NCBI GenBank assembly: GCA_963707905.1
Contig: CAVPSA010000020.1
Coordinates: forward strand, 4,320 to 68,319
DNA length: 64,000 nucleotides
Direction of reading: 5' to 3'
Origin: an uncultured Actinomycetes bacterium
GTDB taxonomy: Bacteria; Actinomycetota; Actinomycetes; Streptosporangiales; Streptosporangiaceae
Shown here: piece after piece, positions 1,350-61,093 of the stretch
Numbering within the stretch: the stretch's first letter is position 1
How the letters are laid out: each line of letters begins with the position of its first letter
Notes under the pieces: model-generated
Database searches by the model: none
What the model saw: the letters and a program-made list of their open reading frames with translations, nothing else
Told to the model about the DNA's origin: nothing
Program-made: the position numbers and the translations under genes

Positions 1350-1368
1350 AGTGGAGGGTAAGTGATTT

Positions 1369-4214: not shown

Positions 4215-4376
4215 GGCGACACGGTACCGGGAACCTGTGACATCGGAAAGTCATCGAACCGCCCTCTTGGCAGTCGCTCCGTGAGCGCCGTGCGGGACAC
4301 CTTCGCAGGTAATGCACCGCGGACAGTCGCTCACTGCAAGCTGTCCCCTACGGACGATCTGTATCGGCCCAGGTCG

Positions 4377-4450
4377 CGCGCCTGGCAGGATTCGAACCCG
4401 CGACCCGCTGCTTAGAAGGCAGCTGCTCTATCCGGCTGAGCTACAGGCGC
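4377..4450 (-). tRNA. tRNA-Arg (anticodon UCU)
   Basis: Minus strand reads GCGCCTG-TA-GCTC-AGCCGGATA-GAGC-A-GCTGC-CTTCTAA-GCAGC-GGGTC-GCGGG-TTCGAAT-CCTGC-CAGGCGC-G. This gives a perfect 7-bp acceptor stem, D, anticodon and T stems, U33 and A37 flanking UCU, and a TTCGAAT T-loop. CCA is not encoded. Confidence 0.95.
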
Positions 4451-33891: not shown

Positions 33892-33928
33892 CGCGGGGCG
33901 CGCCGGGGTGGCTGGCGCGCCGGCGCTC

Positions 33929-33980
33929 GACCGGTTAACGTCCCGGGCTGACCGGTTAACGTCCCGGGCTGACCGGTTAA
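33929..33980 (+). repeat. 21-bp tandem repeat x2.5 (gaccggttaacgtcccgggct), each copy containing the GGTTAACC-like palindrome
   Basis: Copies at 33929, 33950 and 33971 (partial), located between the rnj stop (33891) and the ftsK start (34046). Confidence 0.9.
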
Positions 33981-34045
33981 GCCGAGGGCGAGAGGCGCGG
34001 CGTGTCTTTCGCCCGGATCCGCGGGTACTCGTTACCGTGGTAATC

Positions 34046-37000
34046 ATGGCGACCCGTGTCCCAAAGACTGGTGGGTCAAAGGGCGGTGTGTCGCAGGGCG
34101 GCGCCCGCCCGCAGGGCAGGACGGCCTCGCGGCCCCGGGCAGCGGGCACCTCGCAGCGCACCCGGGCCAGCAGCAACAGCCGGGCGCCCGCCCGGGGGCG
34201 CGGCAAGGGTGCCAAGGGCCGGGGCGGGAACCAGCGCGGCAGGACGGGCCGGCCGCAGCGGCGGCAGCCGGCCAGCAACGGGTTCCTGATCCTGTTCGGG
34301 TGGCTCGCCAGTGCTCTCGCCGCCGCCTGGATGCTGGCCGCGCACGCGGTCGGGTTCGCCGCCCGGGGGCTGGGCCGCAGTGCGGCAGACCTGGACCCGA
34401 TGCACCGCAGAGACGGGGCCGGGCTCACCTTTCTCGGTGCGGCCCTGGTGGTCGCCGCCACCACCTGGTTTCACCTGGGCAATGCCGTCGGCAAGCTGAT
34501 GACCGACGTGGTCCGCGGCGGGTTCGGCTCCATGGCCTGGGCCCTGCCGGTGCTGCTCGGCCTGCTGGCCTGGCGGTACCTGCGGCATCCGGACCGGAAC
34601 GCGGAGACCGGGCGGATCGTCATCGGCGGGCTGGCGCTGACCGTGGGTGTGCTCGGCCTGGTGCACATCGCGCACGGCACGCCGTCGCCGGCCAACGGTG
34701 CGGGCGCGATCCAGGCCGCCGGGGGCTTCATCGGCTACTTCGCCTCGGCGCCGCTCGTCGCGGCCGTCACGCCCTGGGTCGCGGCGCCGCTGCTGGCGCT
34801 GGTCTGCGGGTTCGGGCTGCTGGTGATCACCGGCACCCCGCTGCACCGGGTGCCGGAACGCCTCGCCGGGCTGCGCGGCGCCTATCCGGAGGACGAGGCG
34901 GGGGAGGCGGGGGGCAAGACGTCCGCGCTCGGCCGCGGCGGTCGCAAACGGCCCACGGCCATTGAGGCGGGCGATCATGTCAAGCCATACGACACCCCGC
35001 TCCTAGGTGGTCCCGGCGGTGCAGCGGGTACCGGCAGGCCCAGGGGCAAGGGCCCGGTGCTGGAGGAGCCGTCCCGCCCCGCGGGAGCGGCCGCCGCCGG
35101 GCTGGAGGGCTCCGGGGATACCGAGGGCCTGCTCGATGCTCTGGGATTCGGGCCACCGGGAGCCGCCCGCAAACCGGGGCAGCCACTGGAACACCTGGGG
35201 CCGCCCAAGGGCGAGCAGCTCACGCTCGCCGGGGCGAGCGACGCCAGCTACACGCTGCCGCCCGCCGCGCTGCTCAAGCCGGGCACCGCGCCAAAGGTGC
35301 GGACCGGGGCCACCGACGTGGTGATGCGTGCCCTGACCGAGGTGCTCGAACAGTTCGACGTGGATGCCACGGTCACCGGCTTCACCCGCGGGCCGACGGT
35401 CACCAGGTACGAGATCACCCTGGGCCCGGCCGTCAAGGTGGAACGGGTCACCCAGCTCACCAGGAACATCGCCTACGCGGTGAAGAGCGCGGACGTGCGG
35501 ATCGTGTCCCCGATCCCGGGCAAGTCCGCGATCGGGGTGGAGATCCCCAACACCGACCGCGAGATCGTCAGCCTCGGCGACGTGCTGCGCTCACCGGTCG
35601 CGCTGTCCGACCACCATCCGATGGTGGTGGGCCTGGGCAAGAACGTCGAGGGCGCCACGGTCATCGCCAACCTCGCGAAGATGCCTCACATCCTGATCGC
35701 TGGGGCGACCGGGGCGGGCAAGGCGCTCGCTCTCGACACACCGATTCCGACCCCGCGCGGCTGGACGACCATGGGTGAAGTCCGGATAGGCGACCGGGTC
35801 TTTGATGAGAACGGCGAGCCATGCCTGGTGACCGGGGCTACCCCAGTCATGCACGGTCGGCCGTGTTACGAGGTCGAGTTCTCCGACGGCACCGTCATTG
35901 TCGCGGATGCTGAGCACCTGTGGCGGACCGATACAGCAGCGGGACGTCAGCGGCGTGGCCGGCCTCCCCGGGGTGTTCTGTATTGGTCTTCGGCGGATGT
36001 CGCTCAGGTGTCCGAGCGGGCAGCCGAGGTTCTTGGTGAACCGGACCGGCTCATCGGCACCGCCGAGGTGATAGCCGATGTCGGCGATCAGTTCCGCAAT
36101 GCGATCTACCGGGCGGCTATGTCCCTTCCAAATGAGGGACGTGTAATCCGGCCGACGTACCGCCGAGCAGGGCGCGAGGTCGGGTTCTGGGCGCCGGCGT
36201 ACTCCCGGCAGCTGCTCTACAAGGCACTCGTGGAACGCATCAGCGTGCCCGCTGGCGCAAGCCGCGTCCGCCCAGCCGATGCCGAGCCGGTGACGACTGC
36301 CCAGATCGCCGCGTCGCTTCGCACGTGGGGGCGGTTCAATCATTCGGTCGCGCTGTGTGGGCCGCTCCACTACCCCGAGCGGGACCTGCCTGTGGCTCCT
36401 TACACGTTTGGCTGCTGGCTCGGCGACGGGGGCACGATGACTGCCGGGTTCACGTGTGCCGACGAAGAGATACTGGAACACATTCGTAACGACGGGTACG
36501 TGATCACCCATCACGCCAGCACCCGCATCCAGTACACGATTTCGAACAGTCCCGAGCGTGAGCGGCGCATCGCTGAAGCGCTCGAACTGGCAGCTCAGGG
36601 GATGAGCGTGGAGCGGGCCGCACTTCATGCGGGTGTCGGCCTCTCCGCTGTTCTGCGTGCAGCGGGTGGCCGCTTCCCGCAAGGGCGAAGAGGTACCTCC
36701 GTCGCGGGCGCGCCGCCCCGTGCGCGCTACCGGACGCTCAGCAGAATTTTCCGGGAGCTTGGGCCAAAGCACATTCCTGAGGAGTATCTGCATGCGTCCG
36801 TCTCACAGCGCCGTGCCTTGCTCGCCGGGCTGCTTGACACGGACGGCTACTGCAGCCCCAGAGGAATGGTGGAGTTCGCGGTCACCAACCGGGATCTCGC
36901 ATACGGAGTTCTGGAATTGGTGCTTGGCCTTGGATATAAAGCCACACTGCGAACCAAGCCCTGTCATGGCCGCTTCGAGAGCACGTCAACTGCCTACACC

Positions 37001-38191
37001 GTTGGCTTCACGCCGCACGAGCCAGTGTTCCGGCTCAGCCGCAAGCTGGCACGGCAGGGTCTGGCTAACCCAGGTAGCACGGCACGGCGGCGATACATAG
37101 TCGATGTCCGGCCCATCGAGTCGGTGCCGGTCCGCTGCATTGCGGTCAGTAGCTCTAGCCGCATGTACCTGGCGGGCCGGTCATGTGTGCCGACACACAA
37201 TTCGACCTGCGTCAACGGACTGATCACGTCGATCTTGCTGCGGGCTACGCCGGACGACGTGCGGATGATCCTGATCGACCCCAAGCGGGTGGAGCTGTCG
37301 CACTACCAGGGCATCCCGCACCTGATCACGCCGATCATCACCAGCCCGAAGAAGGCCGCCGAGGCGCTGAGCTGGGTGGTCGGGGAGATGGACCGGCGCT
37401 ACGACGACCTGGCCGCGTCCGGGTTCCGGCACATCGACGACTTCAACAAGGCGGTCCGTGCGGGCAAGCTCACCCCGCCGCCGGGCAGCGAGCGCATCTA
37501 CCTGCCGTACCCGTACCTGCTGGTGATCGTGGACGAACTGGCCGACCTGATGATGATCGCGCCCAGGGACGTGGAAGACGCCGTGGTCCGGATCACCCAG
37601 CTCGCCCGGGCCGCCGGCATCCACCTGGTGCTCGCCACCCAGCGCCCGTCGGTGGACGTGGTGACGGGGCTGATCAAGGCCAACGTGCCATCCCGGCTGG
37701 CCTTCGCCGCCGCGAGCGCCACCGACAGCCGGGTCATCCTGGACCAGACCGGCGCGGAGAAGCTCATCGGCCAGGGTGACTCGCTGTTCCTGCCGATGGG
37801 GGCGAGCAAGCCACTGCGGCTGCAGAACGCGTTCGTCACCGAGAAGGAGATCAGGGAGATCGTCGCGCACTGCTGCAAGCAGGCGCAGCCGGCCTACCGC
37901 GAGGATGTCGCCGTGCCCGAGGGCAAGGCCCGCGAGATCGACCCCGACATCGGCGACGACCTCGACGACCTCGTCCGGGCCGCGGAACTCGTGGTCAGCA
38001 CGCAGTTCGGCTCCACCTCGATGCTGCAGCGCAAGATGCGGGTGGGCTTCGCCAAGGCCCGGCTGATGGACCTGCTGGAGAGCCGGGGCATTGTCGGGCC
38101 CAGCGAGGGTTCCAAGGCGCGCGACGTGCTGGTGCTTCCGGATGATCTGCCCGGTTTGCTGGCATCTCTGCGAGGTACCGGGGACGATTGA
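34046..38191 (+). CDS. ftsK: DNA translocase FtsK, interrupted in-frame by a 493-aa intein in the Walker A motif
   Basis: R/G-rich N-terminus, 4 TM helices, linker. Motor domain: [14 protein letters not shown] / intein / [32 protein letters not shown] ... [13 protein letters not shown] ... [24 protein letters not shown]. Gamma (winged-helix) domain at the C-terminus. ATG at 34046. Confidence 0.92.
35723..37201 (+). mobile_element. FtsK intein (493 aa) with a LAGLIDADG homing-endonuclease domain; class-3-type hallmarks
   Basis: Begins [14 protein letters not shown] (Ala1, block A) immediately after GATGAGK. Block B is DAEHLW (His B10, Trp B12). LAGLIDADG motifs: FGCWLGDGG and [11 protein letters not shown]. 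Block F is VPVRCIAV (Cys at F4). Block G is SCVPTHN (Thr G5, His-Asn) followed by the +1 Ser of STCVNG. Confidence 0.85.
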
Positions 38192-40642: not shown

Positions 40643-41260
40643 GTGACCGCCGAAGCTGAACCTCCGGCCCAGGGGGTCGCCGGCCCGGTGGTGCCGCCTC
40701 AGCCGGGGCTCGTCAACCTGGCCAACGCGCTGACCGTGATCCGCCTGGTGCTCGTCCCCGTGGTAGTGGCCTGCCTGCTGGCTGGCGGCACGGCCTGGCG
40801 GGTGGCGGCGTTCGTCGCGTTCGCCGCCGCCTCGGTCACCGACCTGCTGGACGGCCGCGTCGCCCGGAGCAGGGGGCTGATCACCGATTTCGGCAAGATC
40901 GCCGACCCGATCGCGGACAAGGCCCTCACCGGCGCGGCGCTGGTGACGCTGTCCTACCTCGGCTGGCTCCCGTGGTGGGTGACCATCGTGATTCTCGCCA
41001 GAGAGGTCGCCGTGACCGGGCTGCGGTTCTGGGTCATCAGGTACGGCGTGATCGCCGCGAGCCGGGGCGGGAAGCTCAAGACCCTCCTGCAGGTGCTGGC
41101 GATCTCGCTGTACATGCTGCCCGGGGTGCCGCAGTGGCTGCGAGCCGTGGTGATGGCCGCCGCGGTACTGGTCACCCTGGTTACCGGCGCCGACTATGCG
41201 ATACGAGCCGCACGGCTGCGCCGTCGGCCGGTCTCCGGCCGGGCCCGCCCGGCGCCTTGA
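40643..41260 (+). CDS. pgsA: CDP-diacylglycerol--glycerol-3-phosphate 3-phosphatidyltransferase
   Basis: CDP-alcohol phosphatidyltransferase motif DLLDGRVARSRGLITDFGKIADPIADK. Multi-TM protein. Confidence 0.88.
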   Translation: MTAEAEPPAQGVAGPVVPPQPGLVNLANALTVIRLVLVPVVVACLLAGGTAWRVAAFVAFAAASVTDLLDGRVARSRGLITDFGKIADPIADKALTGAALVTLSYLGWLPWWVTIVILAREVAVTGLRFWVIRYGVIAASRGGKLKTLLQVLAISLYMLPGVPQWLRAVVMAAAVLVTLVTGADYAIRAARLRRRPVSGRARPAP

Positions 41261-41261
41261 C

Positions 41262-41392
41262 GCACCGCCGGGCGGCTGGTGCCGGGGGAGGCGCGCGGCT
41301 GGTGCCGAGGGGCACCGCCGGGCGGCTGGTGCCGAGGGAGGCGCGCCGGGCGCCCTTGACGCACCACCCTGCGGCCGGTGCCGCCGGAGGCC
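41262..41392 (+). repeat. ~50-bp imperfect tandem repeat x ~2.7 in the pgsA-cinA spacer
   Basis: gcaccgccgggcggctggtgccg(g/a)gg(g)gaggcgcgc units start at 41262 and 41312, with a degenerate third copy at 41361 whose GGAGG serves as the cinA RBS. A flanking ccttgacgcacc motif is duplicated at ~41255 and ~41353. Confidence 0.8.
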
Positions 41393-41403
41393 ATGATGGT
41401 CCC

Positions 41404-41889
41404 GTGGACTCACCCGGCGACCTGGCGGCCCGGATCGTGAGCGTGCTGGGGGAGCGCGGCCAGACCCTCGCCACCGCCGAGTCACTCACCGGTGGCATGC
41501 TCGGCGCGGCCATCACCGCGATTCCGGGTGCCTCGGCGGTGTACCGCGGCGGCATCGTCGCCTACGCGACCGAGCTCAAGACGGTGCTCCTCGGCGTCCC
41601 CGCCGACCTGCTGGCCCGGCATGGCCCGGTCCACCCCGATGTGGCCGCGGCCATGGCAGCGGGCGCCCGGGACCGGCTCGGCGCCACCTGGGGCCTGGCC
41701 ACGACGGGTGTGGCGGGGCCGGATCCCGTGGCCGGGCTTCCGCCCGGCACCGTGCACATCGGGGCCAGCGCAGGCGTGCCGGTCACCCGGGCCCTGGCCC
41801 TGGCCGGCGGGCGTAACGACATCCGGCGGGACACTGTCGGAGAAGCCCTGAAACTGCTGTGGAAGCTGCTACGGGAAGATGATCCCTGA
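41404..41889 (+). CDS. CinA-family C-terminal domain protein (PncC-like nicotinamide-nucleotide amidase)
   Basis: TLATAESLTGGMLGAAITAIPGASAVYRGGIVAYATELKTVLLGVP...GLATTGVAGP. GTG at 41404 follows GGAGG. Confidence 0.8.
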   Translation: MDSPGDLAARIVSVLGERGQTLATAESLTGGMLGAAITAIPGASAVYRGGIVAYATELKTVLLGVPADLLARHGPVHPDVAAAMAAGARDRLGATWGLATTGVAGPDPVAGLPPGTVHIGASAGVPVTRALALAGGRNDIRRDTVGEALKLLWKLLREDDP

Positions 41890-43153: not shown

Positions 43154-44665
43154 GTGGTCAAAGTGACCTTCCGTGACCAGAATGGAGGCGCTTGCACCGC
43201 TTCCGGCCCGGGTGCGTTCCCGCTGGGTGCGGCCATCACCCTGGCGGATCTTGACCACGACCCGCACCCCCGGCTGGCCCGCCTCCGGGACACCGAACCG
43301 GTCTCCTGGCTGCCTGCCCTGCACGGCTGGCTGGTCACCAGGCACGACCTCGCGGTCGCCGTCATGCGGGACAGCGTGGCCTTCACGGTGGACGACCCGA
43401 GGTTCTCCACGGCCCGCGTCGTCGGGCCGAGCATGCTCTCCCTGGACGGTGCCGCGCACGGCCGTCACCGCGCCCCGTTCACCAGGGGCTTCGGCCGTGC
43501 CGAGATTCACGCCCGGCTGGCCGCGTTCGTGGTGGCGGAAGCCGATCGCCTGGTGGCGGCGATGCGGCCCGGCGGCGCCGCGGACCTGCGGCGCGGCCTG
43601 GCCGGCCCGCTGGCCGTGGCGGTCGTGGCCGAGGCCCTCGGCCTGGGTGACGCCGACCCCGCGACGGTGCTCGACTGGTACGCGGCGATCGTCGGCTCTG
43701 TGTCCGCCCTGACCGGTGAGCACGGCCCGGTCCCGGGCGGCGGCGATGCCCGCGAGGACGGGGCCCGCGAGGACGAGGTGCGCGAGGACCAGGTCCGGCG
43801 GGACCGGGCCCGTGTGGCCGGGGCCGAGGCGTTCGGCTCGCTGAGCGCGCGGCTCACCGCGGTGATCGGATCGGTCCGCGAGCCGCCGTCGCTCCTTGCC
43901 GCGGCGGCCGGCGCCCGCGTGAACGGCACGCCGGTGGCCACCGTGGACGGCACGCCGCGGTGCCGGACGGTCCGGGCGGTTGCCGTGGACAGCACGGCGG
44001 CGGCTGCCGTGGACAGCACGGCGGCGGCTGCCGTGGACAGCACGGCGGCGGCTGCCGTGGACGGCACGGCGGCGGCTGCCGTGGACAGCACGGCGGAGAA
44101 CAGCGGCGGCGCCGGGACCGCTTCCCCGGCGCTGACCACCGCCGAGGTCATCTCCAACGCGGCAGTGATCATGTTCGGCGGCATCGAGACCACCGAGGGC
44201 ATGATCAGCAACGTCATCCTTCATCTGCTCCGGCACCCCGGCCAGCTGGCTCTGGTCCGCGAGGATCCGGGTCTGGTGCCGGGCGCGGTGGAGGAGTCCC
44301 TGCGGCTGGAACCCGCGGCCGCCGTGGTGGACCGCTACGCCACCCGCGACGTCACGCTCGCCGGCGCCCGGATCCGTGCGGGCGACCTGGTCACGGTCTC
44401 GCTGGCCGGGGCCGGCCGGGATCCTGCCGTGTATCCGGACCCGGACACGTTCGACGTGCGCAGATCCAACGCCAGGCTGAACCTTGCCTTCGCTCATGGC
44501 CCGCACTTCTGCCTGGGGGCCCATCTGGCCAGGCTGGAGGCACAGGCTGCGGTCCGCGCCGTGCTCACGCTGCCGGAACTGCGCCTCGACCCGGCGCACC
44601 CAGCCGCGCCGCGCGGGCTGGTGTTCCGCAAGCCGCCGTCGTTGCGCGTACGGTGGGCCGCCTGA
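43154..44665 (+). CDS. Cytochrome P450 with a ~100-aa low-complexity/tandem-repeat insertion
   Basis: Heme loop FAHGPHFCLGAHLARLE, I-helix-like AAVIMFGGIETTEG, ExxR (EESLRLEP). The inserted segment DAREDGAREDEVREDQVRRDR...(VDSTAAAA)n lies between the N-terminal half and the I-helix. Confidence 0.85.
   Translation: MVKVTFRDQNGGACTASGPGAFPLGAAITLADLDHDPHPRLARLRDTEPVSWLPALHGWLVTRHDLAVAVMRDSVAFTVDDPRFSTARVVGPSMLSLDGAAHGRHRAPFTRGFGRAEIHARLAAFVVAEADRLVAAMRPGGAADLRRGLAGPLAVAVVAEALGLGDADPATVLDWYAAIVGSVSALTGEHGPVPGGGDAREDGAREDEVREDQVRRDRARVAGAEAFGSLSARLTAVIGSVREPPSLLAAAAGARVNGTPVATVDGTPRCRTVRAVAVDSTAAAAVDSTAAAAVDSTAAAAVDGTAAAAVDSTAENSGGAGTASPALTTAEVISNAAVIMFGGIETTEGMISNVILHLLRHPGQLALVREDPGLVPGAVEESLRLEPAAAVVDRYATRDVTLAGARIRAGDLVTVSLAGAGRDPAVYPDPDTFDVRRSNARLNLAFAHGPHFCLGAHLARLEAQAAVRAVLTLPELRLDPAHPAAPRGLVFRKPPSLRVRWAA
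43982..44096 (+). repeat. In-frame 24-nt tandem repeat x ~4.8 (gccgtggacagcacggcggcggct) encoding (AVDSTAAA)n
   Basis: Units at 43982, 44006, 44030, 44054 and 44078 (partial). One unit has agc to ggc. Confidence 0.9.
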
Positions 44666-44686: not shown

Positions 44687-46024
44687 TCAGCCGCGCAGGC
44701 GCAGGCCGCGGGGGGTCGGCCGGAAACCCGCATCGGCGAGGGCCTGGGCCAGCGGCGTGTCGTAGACCCCGGTGCCGTCGGCCCGCTCCACGGTGAGACG
44801 GCCCAGCGCACCGCCCCGCACCGCCTCGGCAAGCCCCGCCGCCGCCGGGACGAGCACCGCCGGGTCGCTGGTCCAGGAGAGCAGGGTCTTGCCGCCGCGC
44901 TCCACATAGAGCACGAGCTTCCCATCGGACAGCACCACGAGCGCGCCCGCCTTGCGGCCGGGACGGTGTGCCCCGGGCACCTCGCCGGGCCGTGGCGGCC
45001 AGGGCAGGGCCGCGCCGAACGCGTTCGCCGGGTCCGCCGCCGCGAGCACCGTGACCGGCGGCCCGGTCCCCGCGGTTGCGTTCCCCGAAGGTCCGGTGCC
45101 CCCGGAAAGCCCGGTGCCTGTCGCCGCGGTTGCGGTCCCGGCGCCCCCATCCCAGGCCGCTGGGTCTCGGGCTGCGGCAGTCCCGCTCGCGGCCCCGCCG
45201 CGCCCGCCGCCAAAGGCCTCCGCGTCTCCGGCTGCGGTGGTCCCGCTCGTGGCCCCGTCGCGCCCGCCGCCAAAGGCCTCCGCGTCTCCTGCCGGAGCAC
45301 CCCAGGCCGCTGGGTCTCCCGCCGCGGCGCTCCCCGCTGCCGGGTCACCGGTTCCGGCGCCCTCATCGGCCCAGATGGCGCCCTCCGGCCAGGAAACTCC
45401 CTCCGGCCAAGCCGGACCCGCCGGCTGGGCAGCACCCGGGAGCCCGGCGGCACCCGCCGGGCGGGCAGCGGCCGCCGGCCGGGAAACAGCGCCGGCCGGC
45501 AGCGGGCCAGTCGGCGGCGGCTGGCCGGGCCAGCGTGGCTGCCCGGTACCGGCGGGCGGGCCGGCCGCGGCCGCCTCCTGGGCCGAGGCGACAGCCCGCA
45601 TCCGGTCCACCGCGCCGGGCAGGGCGAACTGCGCCGCGCCGAGCCCCTCCACGAAGTACCCGCGACGGCACTGCCCGGCCTCCTCCATGGCCCGCAGCAC
45701 CGGGTACAGCGCACCGAACCCTCCGGGTACGCGCTCGGCCACCACCGAGCCACGGGTGACGATGCCGTGCCGGTCGAGCAGTGCCTGCGCGATGGCGTGC
45801 GAGCGCCGGGTGGGGTCGGGATCCCGGTCGGGCAGCAGCGACCACCGCCCGGTCACCGTCGGCGGCCCGGTCCGCGTGGGCACCACCGGCCGGCCGTACC
45901 CGCGCCTGCGGGCACCGATCCGGCCCGAACGGCCCGCCATCCTAATGCTGCTCCCCGGGGCCACACCGGCGCCGCCGGGCCCCCGGCGCCGGGCCCGCGC
46001 CACCCTGGCCCGCGCCGGGGCCAC
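44687..46024 (-). CDS. lhr: Lhr C-terminal segment in a separate, overlapping reading frame (probable frameshifted continuation of lhr)
   Basis: TGPPTVTGRWSLLPDRDPDPTRRSHAIAQALLDRHGIVTRGSVVAERVPGGFGALYPVLRAMEEAG...GFRPTPRGLRLRG is the conserved Lhr tail as I recall it from mycobacterial Lhr. Overlaps the upstream ORF by 83 nt in the +1 frame. Confidence 0.7.
   Translation of the reverse strand: MAPARARVARARRRGPGGAGVAPGSSIRMAGRSGRIGARRRGYGRPVVPTRTGPPTVTGRWSLLPDRDPDPTRRSHAIAQALLDRHGIVTRGSVVAERVPGGFGALYPVLRAMEEAGQCRRGYFVEGLGAAQFALPGAVDRMRAVASAQEAAAAGPPAGTGQPRWPGQPPPTGPLPAGAVSRPAAAARPAGAAGLPGAAQPAGPAWPEGVSWPEGAIWADEGAGTGDPAAGSAAAGDPAAWGAPAGDAEAFGGGRDGATSGTTAAGDAEAFGGGRGGAASGTAAARDPAAWDGGAGTATAATGTGLSGGTGPSGNATAGTGPPVTVLAAADPANAFGAALPWPPRPGEVPGAHRPGRKAGALVVLSDGKLVLYVERGGKTLLSWTSDPAVLVPAAAGLAEAVRGGALGRLTVERADGTGVYDTPLAQALADAGFRPTPRGLRLRG
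45181..45292 (-). repeat. 60-nt tandem duplication inside the Lhr C-terminal low-complexity insert (encodes AAGDAEAFGGGR(D/G)GA(T/A)SGT x2)
   Basis: Plus-strand unit tcccgctcg(c/t)ggccccg(c/t)cgcgcccgccgccaaaggcctccgcgtctcc... at 45181 and 45241. Confidence 0.85.
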
Positions 46025-49000
46025 GGGCGCCGCCGTTCACCCCGGAACCGGTTCCAGCCAGCGGGCCCGGCGCCGCGGGGACCGCCTGCCGTCCCGGCGG
46101 AACCCCGTCGAACACCGGCCGGCCGGTACCGAGAACCGTGCGCAACGGCGCCAGCGTGTCGTTGGTCAGCCGCCCCGCCCAGACCAGGTCCCAGATCGCC
46201 GCCGCCACGGCCATATCGGACAGCCCGCGCCAGTCATGGTCCCTGAGCATCCCGGCGACCCGGTCGGCCAGCATGCGGAAGAACAGGCCGCCGCCCCCCT
46301 CAAGCACCGCAAGGACCGCGTCATGCACCGGGGTCATGGTGATCTCGGCGGGCGGCGGCAACAGCAGCGGCACCGCCTGTGCGGGCGCGAGCACCACCCA
46401 GCCGTCCCCGCCCGGCAGCCCGCCCGCGCCGGACCACACGATCTCCCCGGCGGCGGTCAGTTCATCGAGCACGGCGGGCTGATAACCGCGAACCCGGCCG
46501 GGAAGCACGAGCGTCTCAAGCGCCGAGGCTGGCAGCGCCGCCCCGGCGAGCTGATCGACCACGTCGAAGACCGCATCCGCGCTGGCCGGGCGCCAGCCAC
46601 CGGCGGCCCGCCCGGCCGCGCCGCGGCGCGGGCCTCCGGCGGGCTGGCCCGCGTTCTGCCAGGCAGGCAGGAACGCCGCAAGTGCCTCCGGTGGCGCGGG
46701 CTCGACCTCCTTGCGGAGCTTGGCCAGGCAGCGGCGGCGCAGCATGCGGAGCACCTCCGCGTCGCACCACTCGGTGCCCCGGCCGCCGGGCACGAACTCG
46801 CCCTCGACGACTCGGTGCTCCGCGGCCAGGCGGTGCAGCGTGCCGGTGATGACCGCCACGCCCAGTCCGTACCTGGCGGCCGCCGCCGGTGCGGTGAACG
46901 GCCCATGGCCGCGGGCGTATCTGGCCACCAGGTCACCGAGCGGGTCGGGGACCGGCTCGGTGAACGCCACGGGCACCCCGGGCGGCAGCGGTACCCCGAG
47001 CGCGTCCCGCAGCCGGCCGGCGTCCTCGATGGCGGCCCACCGGGCCTCCCCGCCGATCCGCACCTCGATCGCCCGCCGGGAGGCGTCCAGCTCGGCCAGC
47101 CAGCCCCCGGCCATGCCCGGCTCGGCGCAGCGCTGCGCGACCTCCGCCGGTGACAGCGGCCCGATGACCCGGAGCAGATCGGCCACGGCCTCCAGGCTGC
47201 GGCAGGCGCGCTCGGCGGTGAGCCGCTGCAGTTCCGCCTCCACCTGGCCGACAACCGCAGGGTCGAGCAGCTCCCGCAGATCCGCCTGGCCGAGCAGTTC
47301 GGCCAGCAGCGAGGAGTCGAGTGCCAGCGCCTGCGCCCGGCGCTCGGCCAGCGGCGAGTCGCCCTCGTACATGAACGCGCCGACGTAGCTGAACAGCAGC
47401 GACCTGGCGAACGGAGAAGGGGCCGGAGTCTCCACCTCGACCAGCCGGACCTTGCGGCTGGCCAGGTCGCGCATCAGGCCGGCCAGGGCGGGCACGTCGA
47501 AGGTGTCCTGCAGGCATTCCCTGACCGTCTCAAGCACGACGGGGAACGTGCCGTACTTGGACGCCACGGCGAGCAGCTGGGCCGACCGCTGCCGCTGCTG
47601 CCACAGCGGGGACCGGTGGCCCGGCCGGCGCCGGGGCAGCAGCAGCGAACGGGCCGCGCACTCACGGAATCTGGACGCGAACAGCGCCGACCCGCCGAGC
47701 TCCGCGGTGACGAGCGGCTCGACCTCCTCGGCCGCCAGCTCGGCGATGCCGGCCGGCGGTGGCTCGTCGGTGTCCGGCACCCGCAGCACGATCCCGTCGT
47801 CGGTGTGCAGCGCCTGCACGTCCATGCCCTCGTAGCGCTCCCTGAGCCGCGCGGCGATCGCCAGCGCCCACGGCGCGTGCACCCGGGCCCCGTACGGGCT
47901 GTGCAGCACCAGCCGCCAGTCCCCGAGTTCGTCACGGAACCGCTCCATCACCAGCGTGCGGTCGTCGGGCAGGTAGCCGGTGGCCTCGCGCTGGCCGTCC
48001 AGGTACCGGATCAGGTTCTGCGCCGCCAGATCGTCCAATCCAGCAATACGCAGCCTCGTCGCAGCCTCCTCCCGGCCCGCTGCGGCGATTTCCCGGCAGA
48101 ACGCGCCCACCGCCCGGCCCAGTTCCGCGGGGCGGCCCATCGTGTCCCCGTGCCAGAACGGGAGCCTGCCCGGCTGCCCCGGCGCGGGGGAGACCAGCAC
48201 CTGGTCGGCGGTGATGTCCTCGATCCGCCAGGAACTGGCACCGAGCACGAACACGTCGCCGACCCGCGACTCGTACACCATCTCCTCGTCGAGTTCGCCG
48301 ACGCGGTGCGAGTTGCGGCCCTGACGCTGCGGGCCGGCCAGGAACACCCCGAACAGGCCCCGGTCGGGGATGGTGCCGCCGCTGGTCACCGCGAGCCGCT
48401 GCGCGCCAGGCCGGCCGCGCAAGGTGCCCGTCGTGCGGTCCCAGATCAGCCGGGGGCGCAGCTCCGCGAACTCCTCGCTCGGGTAGCGGCCCGCCAGCAT
48501 GTCAAGCACCGCGTCGAGCACGCCCCTGGTGAGCCCGCTGAACGGGGCCGCACGCCGGACCAGCCGCTCCACGTCGCCGACCTGCCAGTCGTCCATCGCC
48601 ACCATGGCGACGATCTGCTGGGCGAGCACGTCGAGCGGGTTGCGCGGCACGCGGAGTTCCTCGATCTCACCGTCCCGCATGCGCTGCACGACCACGGTCG
48701 CCTCGACCAGGTCACCCGGGTACTTCGGAAAGATCACGCTGCGGGACACGTCGCCCACCCGGTGGCCGGCCCGGCCGGTGCGCTGCAGCCCGCTCGCCAC
48801 CGACGGCGCGGACTCCACCTGGATGACCAGGTCCACGGCGCCCATGTCGATGCCGAGTTCCAGGCTGGACGTGGCCACCACGGCGGGGAGCCGCCCCGCC
48901 TTCAGTGCCTCCTCGATCTGCGCCCGCTCCTGCCGGGACACCGAGCCGTGATGTGCGCGGGCCACCTCGGCCGGGGCACCCGCCGCGGCGCCGGACTGCG

Positions 49001-50159
49001 CCATGATCTGAGCCGGCGGCCCCGGGGGCGGCGGCCCGCCTGGCCCGTCCAGGCCAGCGGCGGCCTCGTCGCGGGCCTGCGCCCGTTCCGCGGCGATCTC
49101 GTTCAGCCGGCCGCACAGCCGTTCCGCCAGCCGGCGTGAGTTGGCGAACACGATCGTCGACCGGTGCGCCTCGATCAGGTCGAGCACTTTCTCCTCGACG
49201 TGCGGCCAGATGGACCGCTGGCCCTGGGCGGCGTCACGCAGATCGGGTTCCCCGGCTTGTGCGCCACCGTCGGCCGGGCCGGCCGACGGGCGGAGGCTTG
49301 CGGGCGGCGGATCCGGGTCGGTCATGTCCTCGACCGGGACCACGATCCGCAGCTCCATCTGCTTGACGTAGGGCGGCGCCGCTATCGTCACCGGCCGGGC
49401 GCCGCCGAGGAACGTGGCCACCTCCTCCGGCGGCCGGACGGTGGCCGACAGCCCGATCCGCTGGGCCGGGCCGGCGGGCTCGTCCTGGCCGGGCTCGCCC
49501 GGCACGGCGCCGCTCCGCAGCGCGTCCAGCCGTTCCAGCGAGATGGCCAGGTGAGCGCCGCGCTTGTTGCCGGCCAGGGCGTGCACCTCGTCCACGATGA
49601 CGGTGTCCACGCCGCGCAGCGACTCGCGCGCCTTCGAGGTCAGGATGAGGAACAGCGACTCGGGCGTGGTGATAAGGATGTCCGGCGGCTTGCTGGACAG
49701 CCGCCGCCGCTCGTCGGCGCCGGTGTCGCCGGTGCGCACCGCCACCCGGATGTCCGGCTCGGGCACCCCGCGGCGCTGCGCGACCTGGCGGATCCCGGCC
49801 AGTGGGGCGCGCAGGTTCCGCTCGATGTCCACCGCAAGGGCCTTGAGCGGCGAGATGTAAAGCACCCGGCAGCGCTGCTTCGGATCGGCGGCCACCGGGC
49901 TGCTGGCCAGCCGGTCAAGCGCCCACAGGAACGCCGCCAGCGTCTTACCTGACCCGGTGGGCGCGATCACCAGCGTGTTGTCGCCGGCTGCGATGGAGGC
50001 CCACGCGCCCGCCTGCGCTGGAGTCGGCTCGGTGAACGCGCCGTTGAACCATTCCCTGGTCAGCGCGCCGAACCCGGCCAGCGGATCCGTGCCCGTGCCC
50101 GCGTCGTCGGCGCGCGCCCGTGACGGCGCTTCGCTCCTGGCTCGGGTCCTGGCGGGCAT
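45942..50159 (-). CDS. lhr: Lhr-family ATP-dependent helicase, N-terminal ~1400 aa (helicase core plus most of the C-terminal region); ends in a low-complexity stretch
   Basis: TEPTPAQAGAWASIAAGDNTLVIAPTGSGKTLAAF (motif I), VIVDEVHAL (DEVH), LSATV, HHGSVSRQER, and ATSSLELGIDMG followed by RTGRAGH (TGRAGR-type motif VI). ATG at 50159. Confidence 0.88.
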   Translation of the reverse strand: MPARTRARSEAPSRARADDAGTGTDPLAGFGALTREWFNGAFTEPTPAQAGAWASIAAGDNTLVIAPTGSGKTLAAFLWALDRLASSPVAADPKQRCRVLYISPLKALAVDIERNLRAPLAGIRQVAQRRGVPEPDIRVAVRTGDTGADERRRLSSKPPDILITTPESLFLILTSKARESLRGVDTVIVDEVHALAGNKRGAHLAISLERLDALRSGAVPGEPGQDEPAGPAQRIGLSATVRPPEEVATFLGGARPVTIAAPPYVKQMELRIVVPVEDMTDPDPPPASLRPSAGPADGGAQAGEPDLRDAAQGQRSIWPHVEEKVLDLIEAHRSTIVFANSRRLAERLCGRLNEIAAERAQARDEAAAGLDGPGGPPPPGPPAQIMAQSGAAAGAPAEVARAHHGSVSRQERAQIEEALKAGRLPAVVATSSLELGIDMGAVDLVIQVESAPSVASGLQRTGRAGHRVGDVSRSVIFPKYPGDLVEATVVVQRMRDGEIEELRVPRNPLDVLAQQIVAMVAMDDWQVGDVERLVRRAAPFSGLTRGVLDAVLDMLAGRYPSEEFAELRPRLIWDRTTGTLRGRPGAQRLAVTSGGTIPDRGLFGVFLAGPQRQGRNSHRVGELDEEMVYESRVGDVFVLGASSWRIEDITADQVLVSPAPGQPGRLPFWHGDTMGRPAELGRAVGAFCREIAAAGREEAATRLRIAGLDDLAAQNLIRYLDGQREATGYLPDDRTLVMERFRDELGDWRLVLHSPYGARVHAPWALAIAARLRERYEGMDVQALHTDDGIVLRVPDTDEPPPAGIAELAAEEVEPLVTAELGGSALFASRFRECAARSLLLPRRRPGHRSPLWQQRQRSAQLLAVASKYGTFPVVLETVRECLQDTFDVPALAGLMRDLASRKVRLVEVETPAPSPFARSLLFSYVGAFMYEGDSPLAERRAQALALDSSLLAELLGQADLRELLDPAVVGQVEAELQRLTAERACRSLEAVADLLRVIGPLSPAEVAQRCAEPGMAGGWLAELDASRRAIEVRIGGEARWAAIEDAGRLRDALGVPLPPGVPVAFTEPVPDPLGDLVARYARGHGPFTAPAAAARYGLGVAVITGTLHRLAAEHRVVEGEFVPGGRGTEWCDAEVLRMLRRRCLAKLRKEVEPAPPEALAAFLPAWQNAGQPAGGPRRGAAGRAAGGWRPASADAVFDVVDQLAGAALPASALETLVLPGRVRGYQPAVLDELTAAGEIVWSGAGGLPGGDGWVVLAPAQAVPLLLPPPAEITMTPVHDAVLAVLEGGGGLFFRMLADRVAGMLRDHDWRGLSDMAVAAAIWDLVWAGRLTNDTLAPLRTVLGTGRPVFDGVPPGRQAVPAAPGPLAGTGSGVNGGARGPGAGQGGAGPAPGARRRRCGPGEQH

Positions 50160-50301
50160 CCTTCCATCCTGCCCTGCCCTGCGGACAATTCCGCCCACGA
50201 GTGCCGGGCCGCCCGGCCAGCCGTACCACAGTCCTCCACCTGCGATGGGCATGAATATGACAGCGACGCCCTTAGAGGGGCACTAAATCCACATTCACAC
50301 T

Positions 50302-50340: not shown

Positions 50341-50415
50341 GGCTTGCCGGGCACAGGCTTGCCGGGCACAGGCTTGCCGGGCACAGGCTTGCCGGGCACA
50401 GGCTTGCCGGGCACA
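50341..50415 (+). repeat. Perfect 15-bp tandem repeat x5 (ggcttgccgggcaca)
   Basis: Units at 50341, 50356, 50371, 50386 and 50401, located between the stop of the septum-formation-like gene (50423) and the lhr start (50159). Confidence 0.95.
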
Positions 50416-52465: not shown

Positions 52466-52595
52466 TGCGCGGCCCGTGTCCCGCGCGCCGCTGAGACGGT
52501 GCCGTAGGGCTGCGCGGCGCGGTGGGTCCGAGAGCTTGGGCTGTGCGGCTGGTGTCCCGGGCTGTGCGGGCCCGGGCCGCCGGTACCCTGGCGCC

Positions 52596-53040: not shown

Positions 53041-55318
53041 ATGGCAGGCATCGACAGGCCGGGCGGGAAAGCCGGCGACAGGGACAAGTCCCTGGAAACC
53101 GCCCTCGCCCAGATCGAGCGGCAGTTCGGCAGAGGCTCCGTCATGCGGCTGGGTGACGAGGTCCGGGCACCGATCGAGGTGATCCCTACCGGGGCGATCT
53201 CGCTGGACATCGCCCTGGGTATCGGGGGGCTCCCACGCGGCCGGGTCGTGGAAATATATGGACCCGAAGGAACGCGGCAAGACCACCCTGGCCCTCGAAG
53301 CGATCGCTAACGCACAGAAAGCGGGCGGGATCGCAGCCTTCATCGACGCCGAGCACGCCCTCGACCCCGAGTACGCCGGGAAGCTCGGCGTGGACACTGA
53401 CGCGCTGCTGGTCTCCCAGCCGGACACCGGCGAGCAGGCACTGGAGATCGCAGACATGCTGATCCGCTCCAGCGCGATCGACGTCATCGTCATCGACTCC
53501 GTCGCCGCGCTGGTGCCACGGGCCGAGATCGAGGGCGAGATGGGGGACAGCCCACGTCGGCCTGCAGGCCCGGCTCATGTCGCAGGCCTTGCGCAAGCTC
53601 GCGGGCGCGCTGAACCAGACCAAGACCACCGCGATCTTCATCAACCAGCTGCGGGAAAAGGTCGGGGTCATGTTCGGCTGTATGTCCTACTCGACCAGGG
53701 TCACCCTGGCTGACGGCACCCAGGAGAAGATCGGCAAGATCGTCAACCAGCGGATGGACGTCGAGGTCCTTTCTTACGATCCGGAGACCGATCGCGTGGT
53801 TCCCCGGCGTATCGTCAACTGGTTCAACAACGGCAAGGCCGAGCAGTTCCTGCAGTTCACCGTTGCCAAGTCGGGGAAGAACGGGCGGGCGCAGTTCGCC
53901 GCAACCGAGAACCACCTCATCCGCACCCCCGGTGGCTGGCGCCCAGCTGGTGAGCTGATTCCCGGTGACCGGGTCCTCGTCGCGGAGCAGCAGATCCTCG
54001 GCGCACAGCAAGCCCAGGTGATCCTCGGGTCGCTCATGGGGGACGGGGCGCTATCCCCGAACCTCCGCGGCAGGTCCGGCACCCGGTTCCGGATGGGGCA
54101 CGGTGCGAAGCAGGCGGCTTACCTGGACTGGAAGGTGTCCCTGCTGGACAACATCCCGCATACGAGGACGTCGAACGCCAAGGGTGCGGTCTTCGTCGAC
54201 TTCACCCCACTGCCCGAACTGGGAGAGCTGCGCGAGACCGTCTACTTCGGCGATGGCAAAAAGCACCTCACCTGGGACTATCTCAAGAGCCTCACGCCGC
54301 TCGCGCTGGCGGTCTGGTACATGGACGACGGCTCCTTCACCGTCCGCTCGAAGGGCGTCCAGGAGCGCACCAGGGGCGGCACGGGCCGGATCGAGATCTG
54401 TGTCGAGGCGATGAGCCCGGGCTCAAGGGAGCGGCTCGTCGACTACCTTCGGGACGCTTACCGGCTGGATGTGAAGGTCACCGCCCGGGGGGCACGCAAG
54501 GTGAGCGTTCTCCAGTTCACCACCGCGGCGTCGGCGGAGTTCCAGAAGCTCATCGCGCCTTATGTCCACCCATCGATGGACTACAAACTGCTGCCGAGGT
54601 TCCAGGGCAGGTTCGCCATGCAGCCGGAGTTCGCTGCCGGCGAGGACCCGGCCCGTCCCTGCTCAGGTCCTGGACATCCACGTCAAGCCGCCGACTCGGT
54701 CGATGAGCCGTTTCGACATCGAGGTCGAGGGATCGCATTGCTACTTCGTGGATGGCGTCATGGTTCACAACAGCCCCGAGACCACCTCTGGGGGGCGGGC
54801 GCTGAAGTTCTACTCCTCCGTCCGGCTCGACGTGCGCCGGATCGAGACGCTCAAGGACGGCACCGATGCCGTCGGCAACCGCACCAAGGTGAAGGTCGTC
54901 AAGAACAAGGTGGCGCCCCCCTTCAAGCACCGCGGAGTTCGACATCCTGTTCGGGACCGGCATCAGCCGGGAGGGTGGCCTGATCGACCTCGGGGTCGAG
55001 CAGAACATCGTGCGCAAGTCCGGTGCCTGGTACACCTACGAGGGCGACCAACTCGGGCAGGGCAAGGAGAACGCGCGGAACTTCCTGCGTGACAACCCCG
55101 ATCTTGCCAACGAGATCGAGAAGAAGATCAAGGAGAAGCTCGGCGTCGGCGCACGCCTGGACGCGGAGGCGGCGGACAAGGAGCCGGCGTCGGGTGCGGG
55201 CCTGCGCGCGGTCCCGAATGGGGCCGCAGCCGCGGCAGGCACGGCAGCCGCGGCTGCGGGTGCGTCCGGCGGCCGGGGTGTCACCAGGGTCACCGGCGGG
55301 CCCGGTGGTGCCGGGTAG
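53041..55318 (+). pseudogene. recA: recA with a RecA-b-site intein; the reading frame is broken by four single-nucleotide insertions (three in exteins, one in the intein)
   Basis: RecA sequence is spread over five successive frames (ORFs 52915, 53258, 53577, 54562, 55010; frame index 1-2-0-1-2). Shifts: 53269-53275 in the P-loop (GPE|xx|GKTT has 7 nt where 6 are expected); 53551-53553 (GDS[14 protein letters not shown]); ~54640-54660 (inside the intein); 54928-54931 (PPFK[12 protein letters not shown]). Apart from these shifts, every extein segment matches the canonical RecA sequence. Confidence 0.85.
53679..54771 (+). mobile_element. RecA intein (about 364 aa if the frame is repaired) with a LAGLIDADG homing-endonuclease domain, inserted at ...GVMFG/SPETT...
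   Basis: Starts [19 protein letters not shown] (Cys1, block A). Block B: [18 protein letters not shown] motifs: [11 protein letters not shown] and [11 protein letters not shown]. Ends [20 protein letters not shown] followed by +1 Ser. The length is 1093 nt (3n+1), so it carries one of the four frameshifts. Confidence 0.85.
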
Positions 55319-55323: not shown

Positions 55324-56214
55324 ATGGCACGGGATAGGGGCCTCCCGGGCCAGGGAGGCCGCAGAACCAGGAGCGGGTCATCCGGCCGGAAGACCGGCAC
55401 CGGGCACCTGACCTTGGTCCCAGGTCCCGGATTGGTGCCGGGTGCTGACGAGGAGGCCGCCGAGGCGTTCGCCGCCGCGGGTTCCGCCGAGGCAGATCCC
55501 GGCGCGGAGTCCGGCGGTCCGGGCGAGCGCCGCGCTGGCCGTCGCCATGCCCGGAACCCCGGCGGCGCAGGCCCCGGCGCTCCGGGCTCCGGCGCTCCGG
55601 GCTCCGGTGGTGCGCGTTCGGGTGATGCGGATCCCTGGGAGACCGGTTCCGGCGGCGTGAATTCCGCTGGCGCGGACCCTGGTAGCGAGGAGGCGGCGCG
55701 GGCGATCTGCTTGCGGTTGCTCACCGCCGGGCCGCGCACCCGGGCACAGCTGGCCACCGCGCTGCGCAAGCGGAAGATTCCGGACGAGGTCGCGGAATCC
55801 GTGCTGAGCCGGTTCGCTGAGGTCGGCTTGATCGACGACGAGGCCTTCGCCCGGGCGTGGGTGGAGAGCCGGCACCACGGCCGCGGCCTCGCCCGCCGCG
55901 CGCTCAGCGCCGAACTGCGGCAGCGCGGGATACCCGACGGCGCAGTGCGGTCGGCGGTGGGCCTGCTCGGGCCACAGGACGAACTGGCCACCGCCCGGCG
56001 GCTGGTGGCCAAGCGGCTGCCGGCCAGCCGGGGGAAGCCGATGCCAGCCCGGGCCCGGCAGCTGATGGGCATGCTGGCCCGTAAGGGCTATCCGGCTGGC
56101 CTGGCCGCTCAGGTGGTGCGGGAAGCCCTGGAACAAGAGCAGGAAGACGATGCGGGCCGCGGGGCGGATCTGGCGTGGATTAGCGAAGACGGCGCCGGTG
56201 ACGATTGGCTGTGA
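55324..56214 (+). CDS. recX: Recombination regulator RecX with a long Gly/Pro/Ala-rich N-terminal extension
   Basis: EEAARAICLRLLTAGPRTRAQLATALRKRKIPDEVAESVLSRFAEVGLIDDEAFARAWVESRHHGRGLARRALSAELRQRGI. ATG lies 5 nt after the recA stop. Confidence 0.85.
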   Translation: MARDRGLPGQGGRRTRSGSSGRKTGTGHLTLVPGPGLVPGADEEAAEAFAAAGSAEADPGAESGGPGERRAGRRHARNPGGAGPGAPGSGAPGSGGARSGDADPWETGSGGVNSAGADPGSEEAARAICLRLLTAGPRTRAQLATALRKRKIPDEVAESVLSRFAEVGLIDDEAFARAWVESRHHGRGLARRALSAELRQRGIPDGAVRSAVGLLGPQDELATARRLVAKRLPASRGKPMPARARQLMGMLARKGYPAGLAAQVVREALEQEQEDDAGRGADLAWISEDGAGDDWL

Positions 56215-58814: not shown

Positions 58815-61093
58815 CACGCCCAGGCTAGGGCGGCACCAGCATTGCTCTGAACAGCGGGACAAAACGCTGTCCAGAGCAACCCTGGTGCCGTTGGGATGAG
58901 CTGCGCTGCTCCGGCTCGGCACGGGCTTAGGCGCGGGAGGGTTGCTCTCGGGCGATTGCTCTCTGGGGGCTGGCGGGGCTGCGGCGGCCGCTTCGTGGAG
59001 GGGGGAGCGGGGGGTGGTTCCGGGGCTGGTGGGGGTTCGGCTGGGGGAGCGGGTTCGGGGATGTCGGGGGCGGTGGTGTGGAGTCTTAGCATCGGGGTGT
59101 CGGGGTGGGGGAAGTTCAGGGTTTGGGCGTAGAGGGAGAGTTCGGCCTCGATGGCGGCGATGATCGTTTCGGGGTGGCGGAAGCCGTGGGACTCGTCTTT
59201 GAACTCGAGCAGGGCGTGGGGGATGCCCTGGTGGGTGAGCTGGGCTGCCAGTGCGTGGGCCTGGGCCGGGGGGACGACCGGGTCGTCCTGGCCGTGTAGC
59301 TGGAGGATGGGGCAGGTCTCGGTGCTGACGCGCTGGGCGGGGGAACGCTCGGCGTAGGCCGCCGCGAAACCGGGCAGCGGGCCGATCAGGCCGTCGGTGT
59401 ACCTGGACTCGAAATCATGCGTGGTGGCGGCGAAACTGCGCGGGTCGGTGATGCCGTAGTAGGACGTGGCGGCCTTGAACGGGCTGCCGGCAGCATGTGC
59501 GGTAACCGCCGCCAGGGCGGTCCAGCCGCCCGCGGAGGCACCGCGGATCACCAGCCTGGCGCCGTCCGCGTCGCCGGAATTGACCAGCGCCTGCGCTGCC
59601 GCGATCACGTCCTCCACGTCGACCACGCCCCACTGGTGGCGCAGCCGCTCCCGGTACACCCGGCCATAGCCGGCCGAGCCGCCGTAGTTCACGTCGATGA
59701 CGCCGATGCCCCGGCTGGTGAAGTACGCCTTTTCCAGGTCAAGCCTGCGGTCTGCCTGCGATGCCGGGCCGCCGTGTGCCCAGACCACGTACGGCGGCAG
59801 CTCCCCCGCACCGGCCGTCGCCTCCGGATTGGCGGGCGGGTATACCCAGGCGTGCACCTCCTGGCCGAACTTCCCTTCGAACTCCAGCTTGCGTGCCTTG
59901 GGCAGGTACCCGGACGCGGGCAGGCGCCCGGCCGGCGAATAGAGCTTTTTCGCCTTCCCCGTGGTCATGTCGACCCGGATCACCGACATCGGCGTGCTCG
60001 GCCCGCCGGCCACCAGCACGACGGACATGCCGTCCGCGGACAGCTCGGGCGCGAAGTTCTGGTACGGGATGTCCAGGTCGGTCAGTTCCCCGGTCGTGGG
60101 GTCGAGCAGGCCCAGCCGCAGCCCACCGCAGCCGTGCAGCACCGCGAGCTGCCCGTCGGCCAGCACCGCGTACGGGCGCTGCCCGAGCTGCCACAGCGGT
60201 GCGGCAAACTCCTCCTCGGCCGGGTAGACCGCCTCGGCGGGCCCGGCGGCCACGCTCAGCAGGTAGAGGTTCCACCAGCCCGGCCAGTCGGAGATCAGGT
60301 ACAGGCTCGTGTCGTCGTGCCAGACCGGGGCCAGGACGGACTCACTCACGCCGCCCTTGACCAGCCCGCCCTTGCCGGGGATCGGCTCGTCCACCCGGGC
60401 CACCCGCAGCTCGGTGCCGTCCCACGGCATCCGCGGATGGTTCCAGCACACCCAGGCCAGGCGGCGGCCGTCGGGGGAGGGCGTCGGGAACGCGTAGAAA
60501 TCGGCCCCGCTGGTCAGTTCGCGGATCGCGCCGGCATCCCCGGCGGCCGAGCCGTCCAGCGGCACCGCGACGATCGCGCGGGTCACCTGGCCGGCTTCGT
60601 GCCGCTCCTGTACGCACCAAACTTCCCGCTTGTCCGGCGACAAGGCAAAGTCTGCAAAACGAAACTCCGGGGTACCCGGCTCCGGCAGCGGCGCGGGGGT
60701 CAGCGGCCGGGGCGTGCTGCCGGCTCCGTCCGTACCTGGCTCATCCGCGAGGTAGAGGCGCTGGTCAGCGAAGTTCGCGAAGACGATCGCCCAGGACTGC
60801 CCGCCCCCCCGCCGCGCCGCGCGCACCGGAAGGTAGGACCGTCCACCGTACTCGTGCACCCGGGTCCGGGCATTCCACGGGGCAGACAGCACCTGCCTGG
60901 GCTTTCCCGCCGCTCCCAGGTGAACGACCGTGGCCCGGCCCAGCTCCCCGGGCAGGGTTTCCTGCCACCACACCTCGCCGTCGATCGTCACGGGAAACGA
61001 AACCTGGCGGTACTGGCCGGCGACATCCGCCGCGGTGATGGGCGAAGGCCAGGTACCGCACGGGAGGGGCCGCGCGGCAGTGGTGTCTGTCAT
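58751..61093 (-). CDS. S9-family prolyl oligopeptidase / acylaminoacyl-peptidase-like serine hydrolase with a Pro-rich C-terminal tail
   Basis: N-terminal propeller-type region, then the alpha/beta-hydrolase GASAGGW nucleophile elbow, [12 protein letters not shown] and ESHGF. ATG at 61093. The last ~130 aa are low complexity and overlap the rny 3' end by 64 nt. Confidence 0.8.

Follow-up and report, generated by a model that had tools for sequence, protein, structure and literature searches.

Four surplus bases in the intein-containing recA gene of an uncultured soil actinomycete: probable merging of two strain alleles in the consensus sequence

Mycobacterial RecA inteins, of the PI-MtuI type and the M. 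leprae type, occupy two alternative insertion points in the recA genes of related actinobacteria, and a broken recA reading frame is a trait of reduced-genome symbionts with recA loss. In Nanopore assemblies, homopolymer and other consensus indels that cause frameshifts have been documented (PMC9262707). The Microflora Danica data set consists of Nanopore-only assemblies made by Flye with one round of Medaka polishing, and microdiversity was found to be a limiting factor there (PMC12313526). The present study concerns a stretch of 64,000 nucleotides (hereafter, the window) from a contig of an uncultured actinomycete, in which the recA gene at 53041-55318 (forward strand) is split by four extra bases. 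The locus shares the broken reading frame with the symbionts, the two alternative intein insertion points with the mycobacteria, and with erroneous Nanopore metagenome-assembled genomes (MAGs) the presence of single-base indels that truncate genes in a good contig and are concentrated where co-existing strains differ. According to our analysis of the sequence, the four extra bases very probably stem from the collapse of two haplotypes into one consensus, and the gene itself would be a normal, working recA with an intein, in an uncultured soil actinomycete.

Six-frame translation makes RecA readable only by passing through frames 1-2-0-1-2, each hop being a +1 shift:

From 53041, last base 53268, forward strand: frame segment 1, MAGIDRPGG...VVEIYGPE.
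53276-53551, forward strand: frame segment 2, GKTTLALEA...EIEGEMGDS.
After segment 2 and into the intein, forward strand: frame segment 3, HVGLQARLM...KVGVMFG, then CMSYSTRV from 53679.
Intein remainder to 54927, forward strand: frame segment 4, ...VMVHN, then SPETTSGG...KNKVAPPFK.
To the stop codon at 55316-55318, forward strand: frame segment 5, AEFDILFG...

The first-pass annotation had described this path and attributed it to four single-base insertions, one of them in the Walker A motif; translation and alignment agree, and the nucleotide alignment with intact relatives leaves one surplus base at each of sites 1-4. Four single-base deletions yield an open reading frame (ORF) of 2,274 nucleotides (nt), encoding 757 amino acids (aa) with no internal stops, whose junction residues are the same as those of intact relatives (93% identity). 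The P-loop, deposited as GPE, 7 nt and GKTT, becomes GPEGSGKTT when one base is removed, and this motif is identical in 78 of the 120 closest homologues (the best 120 of thousands). In Pfam the frame-joined protein matches RecA (PF00154, E=2.8e-133) in two stretches with the intein between them, and RecA_C (PF21096, E=4.3e-26). The gene is thus composed as follows:

53041-53678, forward strand: recA N-extein, 212 codons plus 2 spurious bases, with Walker A inside and the end ...KVGVMFG; 98.7% nt identity to relative L001.
53679-54771, forward strand: intein, 364 codons plus 1 spurious base, after VMFG, with a homing-endonuclease domain (LAGLIDADG_2).
54772-55318, forward strand: recA C-extein, SPETTSGG... 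to the stop, plus 1 spurious base, with Pfam RecA and RecA_C.

A search of a large protein collection returned thousands of RecA homologues, the best 120 of which are all single RecA proteins. The closest are 93% identical, 750-757 aa long, and have the window's intein at an identical position. At the positions corresponding to the four junctions, intact homologues read GPEGSGKTT, GD(A/S/T)HVGLQ, PEFAPA(R/Q/K)TRPVPA and PPF(K/R)TAEFD. Among the matches listed for a scan of metagenome contigs with protein P0002 as query, most were distant RecA loci, and the nearest match in the scan of genome contigs (L018) belongs to another species, with 88-94% nt identity and no intein. Relative L001 (ENA ERZ25039537, contig_12639, 1.38 Mb) is 97.4% identical to window positions 43001-64000 in full synteny. 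Three JGI contigs (L164, L165 and L166) carry the window's intein as well. In L002 (ENA ERZ25039538) and L003 (ERZ25039590) the RNase Y gene product is identical to that of the window and the flanks are 97.5-99.3% identical, and recA lacks the intein after VMFG; it has instead another 1.3-kb intein after KNK, with Cys at position +1. The order DUF3046 - recA - recX is the same in the window, L001, L002, L003, L165 and L166.

We therefore designated as allele A the recA of L001, L164, L165 and L166 (intein after VMFG), and as allele B that of L002 and L003 (PI-MtuI-like intein after KNK). The contigs carrying alleles A and B are 97.4-99.3% identical to the window in their flanks. Between the exteins of A (L001) and B (L002), 96 of the 1,182 positions differ, and in only 9 of the 394 extein codons (73, 78, 113, 114, 170, 213, 259, 264 and 274) does the difference amount to at least two bases. 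The frameshift sites, compared with these alleles, are the following:

53272-53275, forward strand: site 1, Ser codon 78 of Walker A; window GGA ACGC GGC, allele A GGA TCG GGC, allele B GGA AGC GGC.
53549-53552, forward strand: site 2, codon 170; window GAC AGCC CAC. The relatives read GAC GCC CAC (L001 and L164), GAC ACC CAT (L165) or GA(C/T) AGC CAC (L166, L002 and L003).
54633-54639, forward strand: site 3, within the intein, extra G at 54636; window GCT-G-CCG, and GCT-CCG or GCT-CCA in all four sampled intein alleles.
54925-54928, forward strand: site 4, codon 264, extra base 54928; window TTC AAGC ACC, allele A TTC AAG AC(C/T), allele B and L166 TTC CGC AC(C/A).

All three extein insertions sit in multi-base A/B codons (78, 170 and 264), and each four-base sequence can be written as a merge of the two alleles. 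At site 1, T-C-G-gap (A) set against A-gap-G-C (B) gives A-C-G-C; at site 2, gap-G-C-C against A-G-C-gap gives A-G-C-C; at site 4, A-A-G-gap (A, Lys) against gap-C-G-C (B, Arg) gives A-A-G-C. The codons of the relatives at site 2, GCC (Ala), ACC (Thr) and AGC (Ser), also have AGCC as their shortest common supersequence. A base is retained in all six gap-versus-base columns of these sites, and because it is kept in every such column, all shifts are +1. Each of the four shifts is due to an insertion, and only that of site 2 extends a homopolymer run. This distinguishes the locus from the errors common in Nanopore MAGs, which are homopolymer indels, whereas here three of the four lie outside homopolymers and, at the extein sites, are codon-level merges of two alleles. 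Another multi-base codon shows the mixture without a shift:

53257-53259, forward strand: codon 73, TAT, a base-wise hybrid of TTT (Phe, allele A) and TAC (Tyr, allele B), 13 nt upstream of site 1.

The relationship was quantified by edit distances between the window (W) and the two alleles. At each of sites 1, 2 and 4, d(W,A)+d(W,B)=d(A,B) locally, and over a tract of 825 nt the values are d(W,A)=12, d(W,B)=73 and d(A,B)=83, so that the sum exceeds d(A,B) by 2. One inserted base can turn allele A into 2,479 distinct products; 12 of these (0.48%) are located on a shortest edit path to B, and the probability that three random insertions would all be of this kind is P ~1.1e-7. The aberrant recA sequence is intermediate between two real haplotypes, A and B. 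Its lesions are not placed independently of the polymorphism in other strains (P ~1e-7, edit-path test). A real mutational process would have no reason to choose those places and those bases, whereas a consensus of a mixture of A and B reads has one, which favors an artefact.

The window is of type A only around recA, as seen in tables of informative sites and in identity by segment:

53089-54958, forward strand: A-type haplotype tract, nearer to B-type L002/L003 on either side.

The C-extein is A-type up to 54958 and B-type, L002-like (99.7%), from 54976 on; segment 54959-55318 is 99.7% identical to L002 and 97.2% identical to L001. Haplotype switches of the window were placed near 53051-53089 and 54958-54976. 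Divergence between A and B reaches about 8% in the exteins and the tract against about 1-2.6% in the flanks. Together with the different large insertions, this divergence makes recA the one locus here with strongly divergent strain alleles. The tract looks like an allele or intein-associated recombination tract, or else an assembly chimera. Site 4 lies 15 nt downstream of 54909/54910, where the 1.3-kb intein of the B type is inserted, and the neighborhood of that insertion point would be a natural place for a polisher to fail.

The intein of the window has the expected splicing residues, namely Cys1 at 53679-53681, the block B motif T-E-N-H (ATENHLIRT) and the C-terminal VMVHN, followed by Ser+1 at 54772-54774. 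LAGLIDADG_2 (PF03161, E=4.1e-40 in Pfam) covers precursor residues 325-500. Intein residues 107-305 match I-SceI structures, and residues 1-105 weakly match mini-intein structures of PI-MtuI. It is thus an intein with a LAGLIDADG endonuclease, for which splicing and homing activity are predicted. With 89-91% nt identity to four intact alleles, it represents a distinct allele. Its insertion site after VMFG is what we take to be the M. leprae-type site. The sequence around site 3 is GCTGCCGGCGAGG. The third shift had earlier been put at about 54640-54660, inside the intein; the location within the intein stands, and the alignment moves the extra base slightly upstream, to 54636. At this site the homologous protein P0051, alone among the homologues, reads AAPRTR where the other alleles read APARTR.

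The B-type intein after KNK matches M. tuberculosis PI-MtuI structures from residue 1 (E=3e-63). Located within L002 5689-8181 and L003 3293-5785, it is PI-MtuI-like and bears LAGLIDADG_3. The intein of the window differs from PI-MtuI in its I-SceI-like LAGLIDADG_2 endonuclease and in the weakness of the PI-MtuI match. In contrast to the mycobacterial case, both intein types occur here among strains with 97-99% identity in the flanks, and some metagenomic homologues have both. Three such proteins, P0031 (1,189 aa), P0052 (1,139 aa) and P0096 (1,207 aa), appear to carry the two inteins together.

Apart from the frame breaks, no sign of decay was found in the gene. Compared with six alleles, the exteins have no real private amino-acid changes in 393 codons; three private changes listed at the site-1 codon are an artefact of which base was deleted there. 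A count of three indels against zero private substitutions over the 1.18 kb of extein is the signature of consensus error and not of neutral decay. The intein has 44 private substitutions, 31 synonymous and 13 non-synonymous, and its ORF has therefore, from these counts, been under purifying selection along the lineage of the window. The relaxed selection expected of a pseudogene is not seen, as there are no stops after correction and no excess of non-synonymous changes. This is a difference from the reduced-genome symbionts, in which decay is genome-wide and selection relaxed, whereas here recX, RNase Y, MiaB and other genes are intact and selection on recA is unrelaxed.

The frame-breaking indels are also unevenly distributed along the window. 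Four were found in the 2.3 kb of recA, as opposed to one event (in the gene for the Lhr helicase) in the other ~18.7 kb aligned to L001, and tracing of the reading frame by codon usage through all 64 kb revealed no further same-strand frame switch. The strong local excess asserted by the first-pass annotation is borne out by both comparisons; its statement that the neighboring ORFs of 560-1430 codons are intact fails for Lhr, which is truncated by a net loss of 2 nt. Two of the neighbors are:

44690-50159, reverse strand: Lhr helicase, frame-broken, net -2 nt at 45985 and 45994, with the C-terminal 431 aa in another frame.
55435-56214, forward strand: recX, intact, directly downstream of recA, with Pfam RecX_HTH1-3 and a full-length match to L001 RecX.

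By tblastn, L001 Lhr is split between two frames, with residues 1-1372 matching 50159-46035 and residues 1391-1821 matching 45982-44690, and the ORF of 1,436 codons (45942-50252, reverse strand) is the N-terminal part of a protein that in relatives has 1,820-1,824 aa. The two missing bases belong to C5/C6 and G3/G4 runs in the Gly/Ala/Pro-rich linker, which is variable among relatives, and the break is probably another consensus error. A second frame-broken gene, at a hypervariable linker of G/C runs, also supports the view that the recA lesions arose in the consensus. The cytochrome P450, septum-formation protein, lactonase, RecX, RNase Y, peptidase S9, MiaB, a 245-aa protein and DapF are each full-length and in a single frame compared with L001.

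We propose the following origin of the extra bases. Two strains would have co-occurred, one with allele A and its LAGLIDADG_2 intein after VMFG, the other with allele B, which lacks it and has the PI-MtuI-like intein after KNK. A long-read metagenome assembler or polisher would then have built a single consensus from the reads of both. At codons with several adjacent A/B differences, alignment of the reads of one allele to the other may open gaps in both, and a consensus that retains the base in each gap-versus-base column would turn a three-base codon into a four-base merge and shift the frame by +1. Circumstances of the assemblies are compatible with such a course. RecA fragments of 89 aa and 102 aa, together with several proteins encoded nearby, are recorded in NCBI and ENA from the contig of the window, of 135,264 nt. 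The nearest relatives are the ENA assemblies ERZ25039537/38/90, apparently long-read assemblies of soil metagenomes, with "contig_N" names in the style of Flye, and a related species representative in GTDB is the Microflora Danica MAG MFD05841.bin.2.69, from which we infer that the source was a Nanopore-only Flye/Medaka assembly. The ERZ accessions of the relatives could not be tied to the Microflora Danica project (PMC12313526). Long-read consensus would also be the more natural source of merges, given that De Bruijn-graph assembly of short reads is presumably poorly able to create k-mers absent from the reads.

Several points weigh against this explanation. None of the four sampled intein alleles accounts for the extra G of site 3. 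About 55 simple A/B positions of the single-nucleotide polymorphism (SNP) type in the tract are purely A-type, and admixture is visible only at the complex sites and at 53258, 53272 and 53365; the artefact would require a particular behavior of the polisher to leave those SNPs unmixed. By our own arithmetic, minimap2-like scores slightly favor the ungapped over the gapped alignment of the merge codons. Finally, the sequencing platform of the contig itself is presumed from its relatives; that the source sample contained both alleles we infer from sister assemblies, ERZ25039537 and ERZ25039538/590, in which A and B were seen.

One alternative is a real, very recent pseudogenization, in which four independent single-base insertions struck the recA of this strain and left it without RecA. 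The insertions are in the deposited sequence, the RecA fragments that they produce are recorded from the contig of the window, and four hits in 2.3 kb are a genuine local excess. The three extein insertions fall, however, where A and B differ (P ~1e-7), and at these sites the inserted bases reproduce those of the other allele. Three indels would have accumulated with no private substitution in 1.18 kb of extein, no stops once corrected and an intein under purifying selection, next to an intact recX and other intact neighbors (Lhr excepted), in a group whose 120 closest homologues (the best of thousands) all read as single RecA proteins. We regard such an event as very unlikely. Were the insertions real, recA including its P-loop would have been inactivated very rapidly, with recX and the repair genes around it still intact, which we consider very unlikely. 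If it were true, a free-living, high-GC actinomycete without RecA would be notable. The first-pass annotation had offered either fresh pseudogenization of recA or poor resolution of the locus in the assembly; the allele merges and their non-random placement (P ~1e-7) speak for the latter, and the absence of other decay speaks against the former. The second recombinase or RecA-less lifestyle that it drew from the former finds no support, since the evidence favors an artefact.

Ordinary random errors of long-read consensus, that is, homopolymer or low-coverage indels unrelated to any second allele, are another alternative. Such homopolymer indels are known in Nanopore assemblies (PMC9262707); runs are also the setting of the Lhr break (C5/C6 and G3/G4), of the single-base intergenic indels at 52574 and 52810, and of site 2, where a C run becomes longer. 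We nevertheless consider this explanation unlikely for recA, where three of the four insertions lie outside homopolymers and the three extein sites are all at codons with multi-base differences between A and B; moreover, a uniform process fails to explain four hits in recA when the remaining ~60 kb of the window are almost free of frame breaks. Programmed recoding, with ribosomal frameshifting or transcriptional slippage restoring the frame at four sites, has in its favor only the perfect conservation of the frame-corrected protein. In close relatives a single, unshifted frame encodes this protein, and the four contexts share no slippery motif. We know of no precedent for four recoding events in one gene of essential function. 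Programmed frameshifting was rejected, as it is effectively refuted by the intact orthologues, and its probability is negligible.

Some other frame irregularities and features of the window were noted. A frame change at 52572-52578 was discounted, being upstream of the Pfam domain of DUF3046 and of the 64-aa genes of relatives, and is probably non-coding. Between DUF3046 and recA, C and G runs at 52574 and 52810 differ from L001 in length by a single base; these differences, probably outside coding sequence, could reflect either natural variation or errors of the consensus. A phase change in guanine-cytosine content at third codon positions at about 61 kb is the boundary of the oppositely oriented peptidase S9 and MiaB genes and was rejected as a frameshift, and so was an ORF overlap at 40643-41889, where the translations are two separate genes resembling pgsA and cinA. 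In the P450 gene (43154-44665), in-frame expansions of a 15-nt repeat relative to L001 at 43775-43975 lead to an AVDSTAAA... stretch. At 50347-50403, adjoining the septum-formation gene, the window, L001 and L002 have different copy numbers of a 15-nt unit (CTTGCCGGGCACAGG-like). The region 58815-59051, the 3' end of peptidase S9 and the adjacent spacer, is hypervariable, with dense small indels and substitutions compared with all relatives.

Further from recA, the forward-strand ORF at 33908-38191 encodes a 1,427-aa FtsK with LAGLIDADG_3 at aa 967-1020 and a match to the FtsK_SpoIIIE ATPase that is divided into two stretches. These features suggest that the window has a second gene with an intein, here in one intact frame. 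The first 4 kb of the window have a GC content of 52-59%, compared with about 70% elsewhere. Region 1-4450 is bounded by a tRNA-Arg(TCT) gene (4376-4450, reverse strand), includes a gene of the sigma-70 family (1940-2941, reverse strand) and two ORFs without a Pfam match, and may be an integrated element.

In conclusion, recA of this actinomycete should not be propagated as a pseudogene. For quality control, the locus teaches that in long-read MAGs, loci with divergent co-existing alleles can gain frameshifts outside homopolymers that mimic gene decay, and that the edit-path test against neighboring alleles offers a means of exposing such artefacts without reads. Two alternative recA inteins and an extein tract with about 8% divergence, in strains that are otherwise 97-99% identical, are real biology, already known in kind. 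As a by-product, our analysis thus provides evidence for alternative recA inteins, accompanied by a divergent extein tract, in closely related strains of soil actinomycetes.

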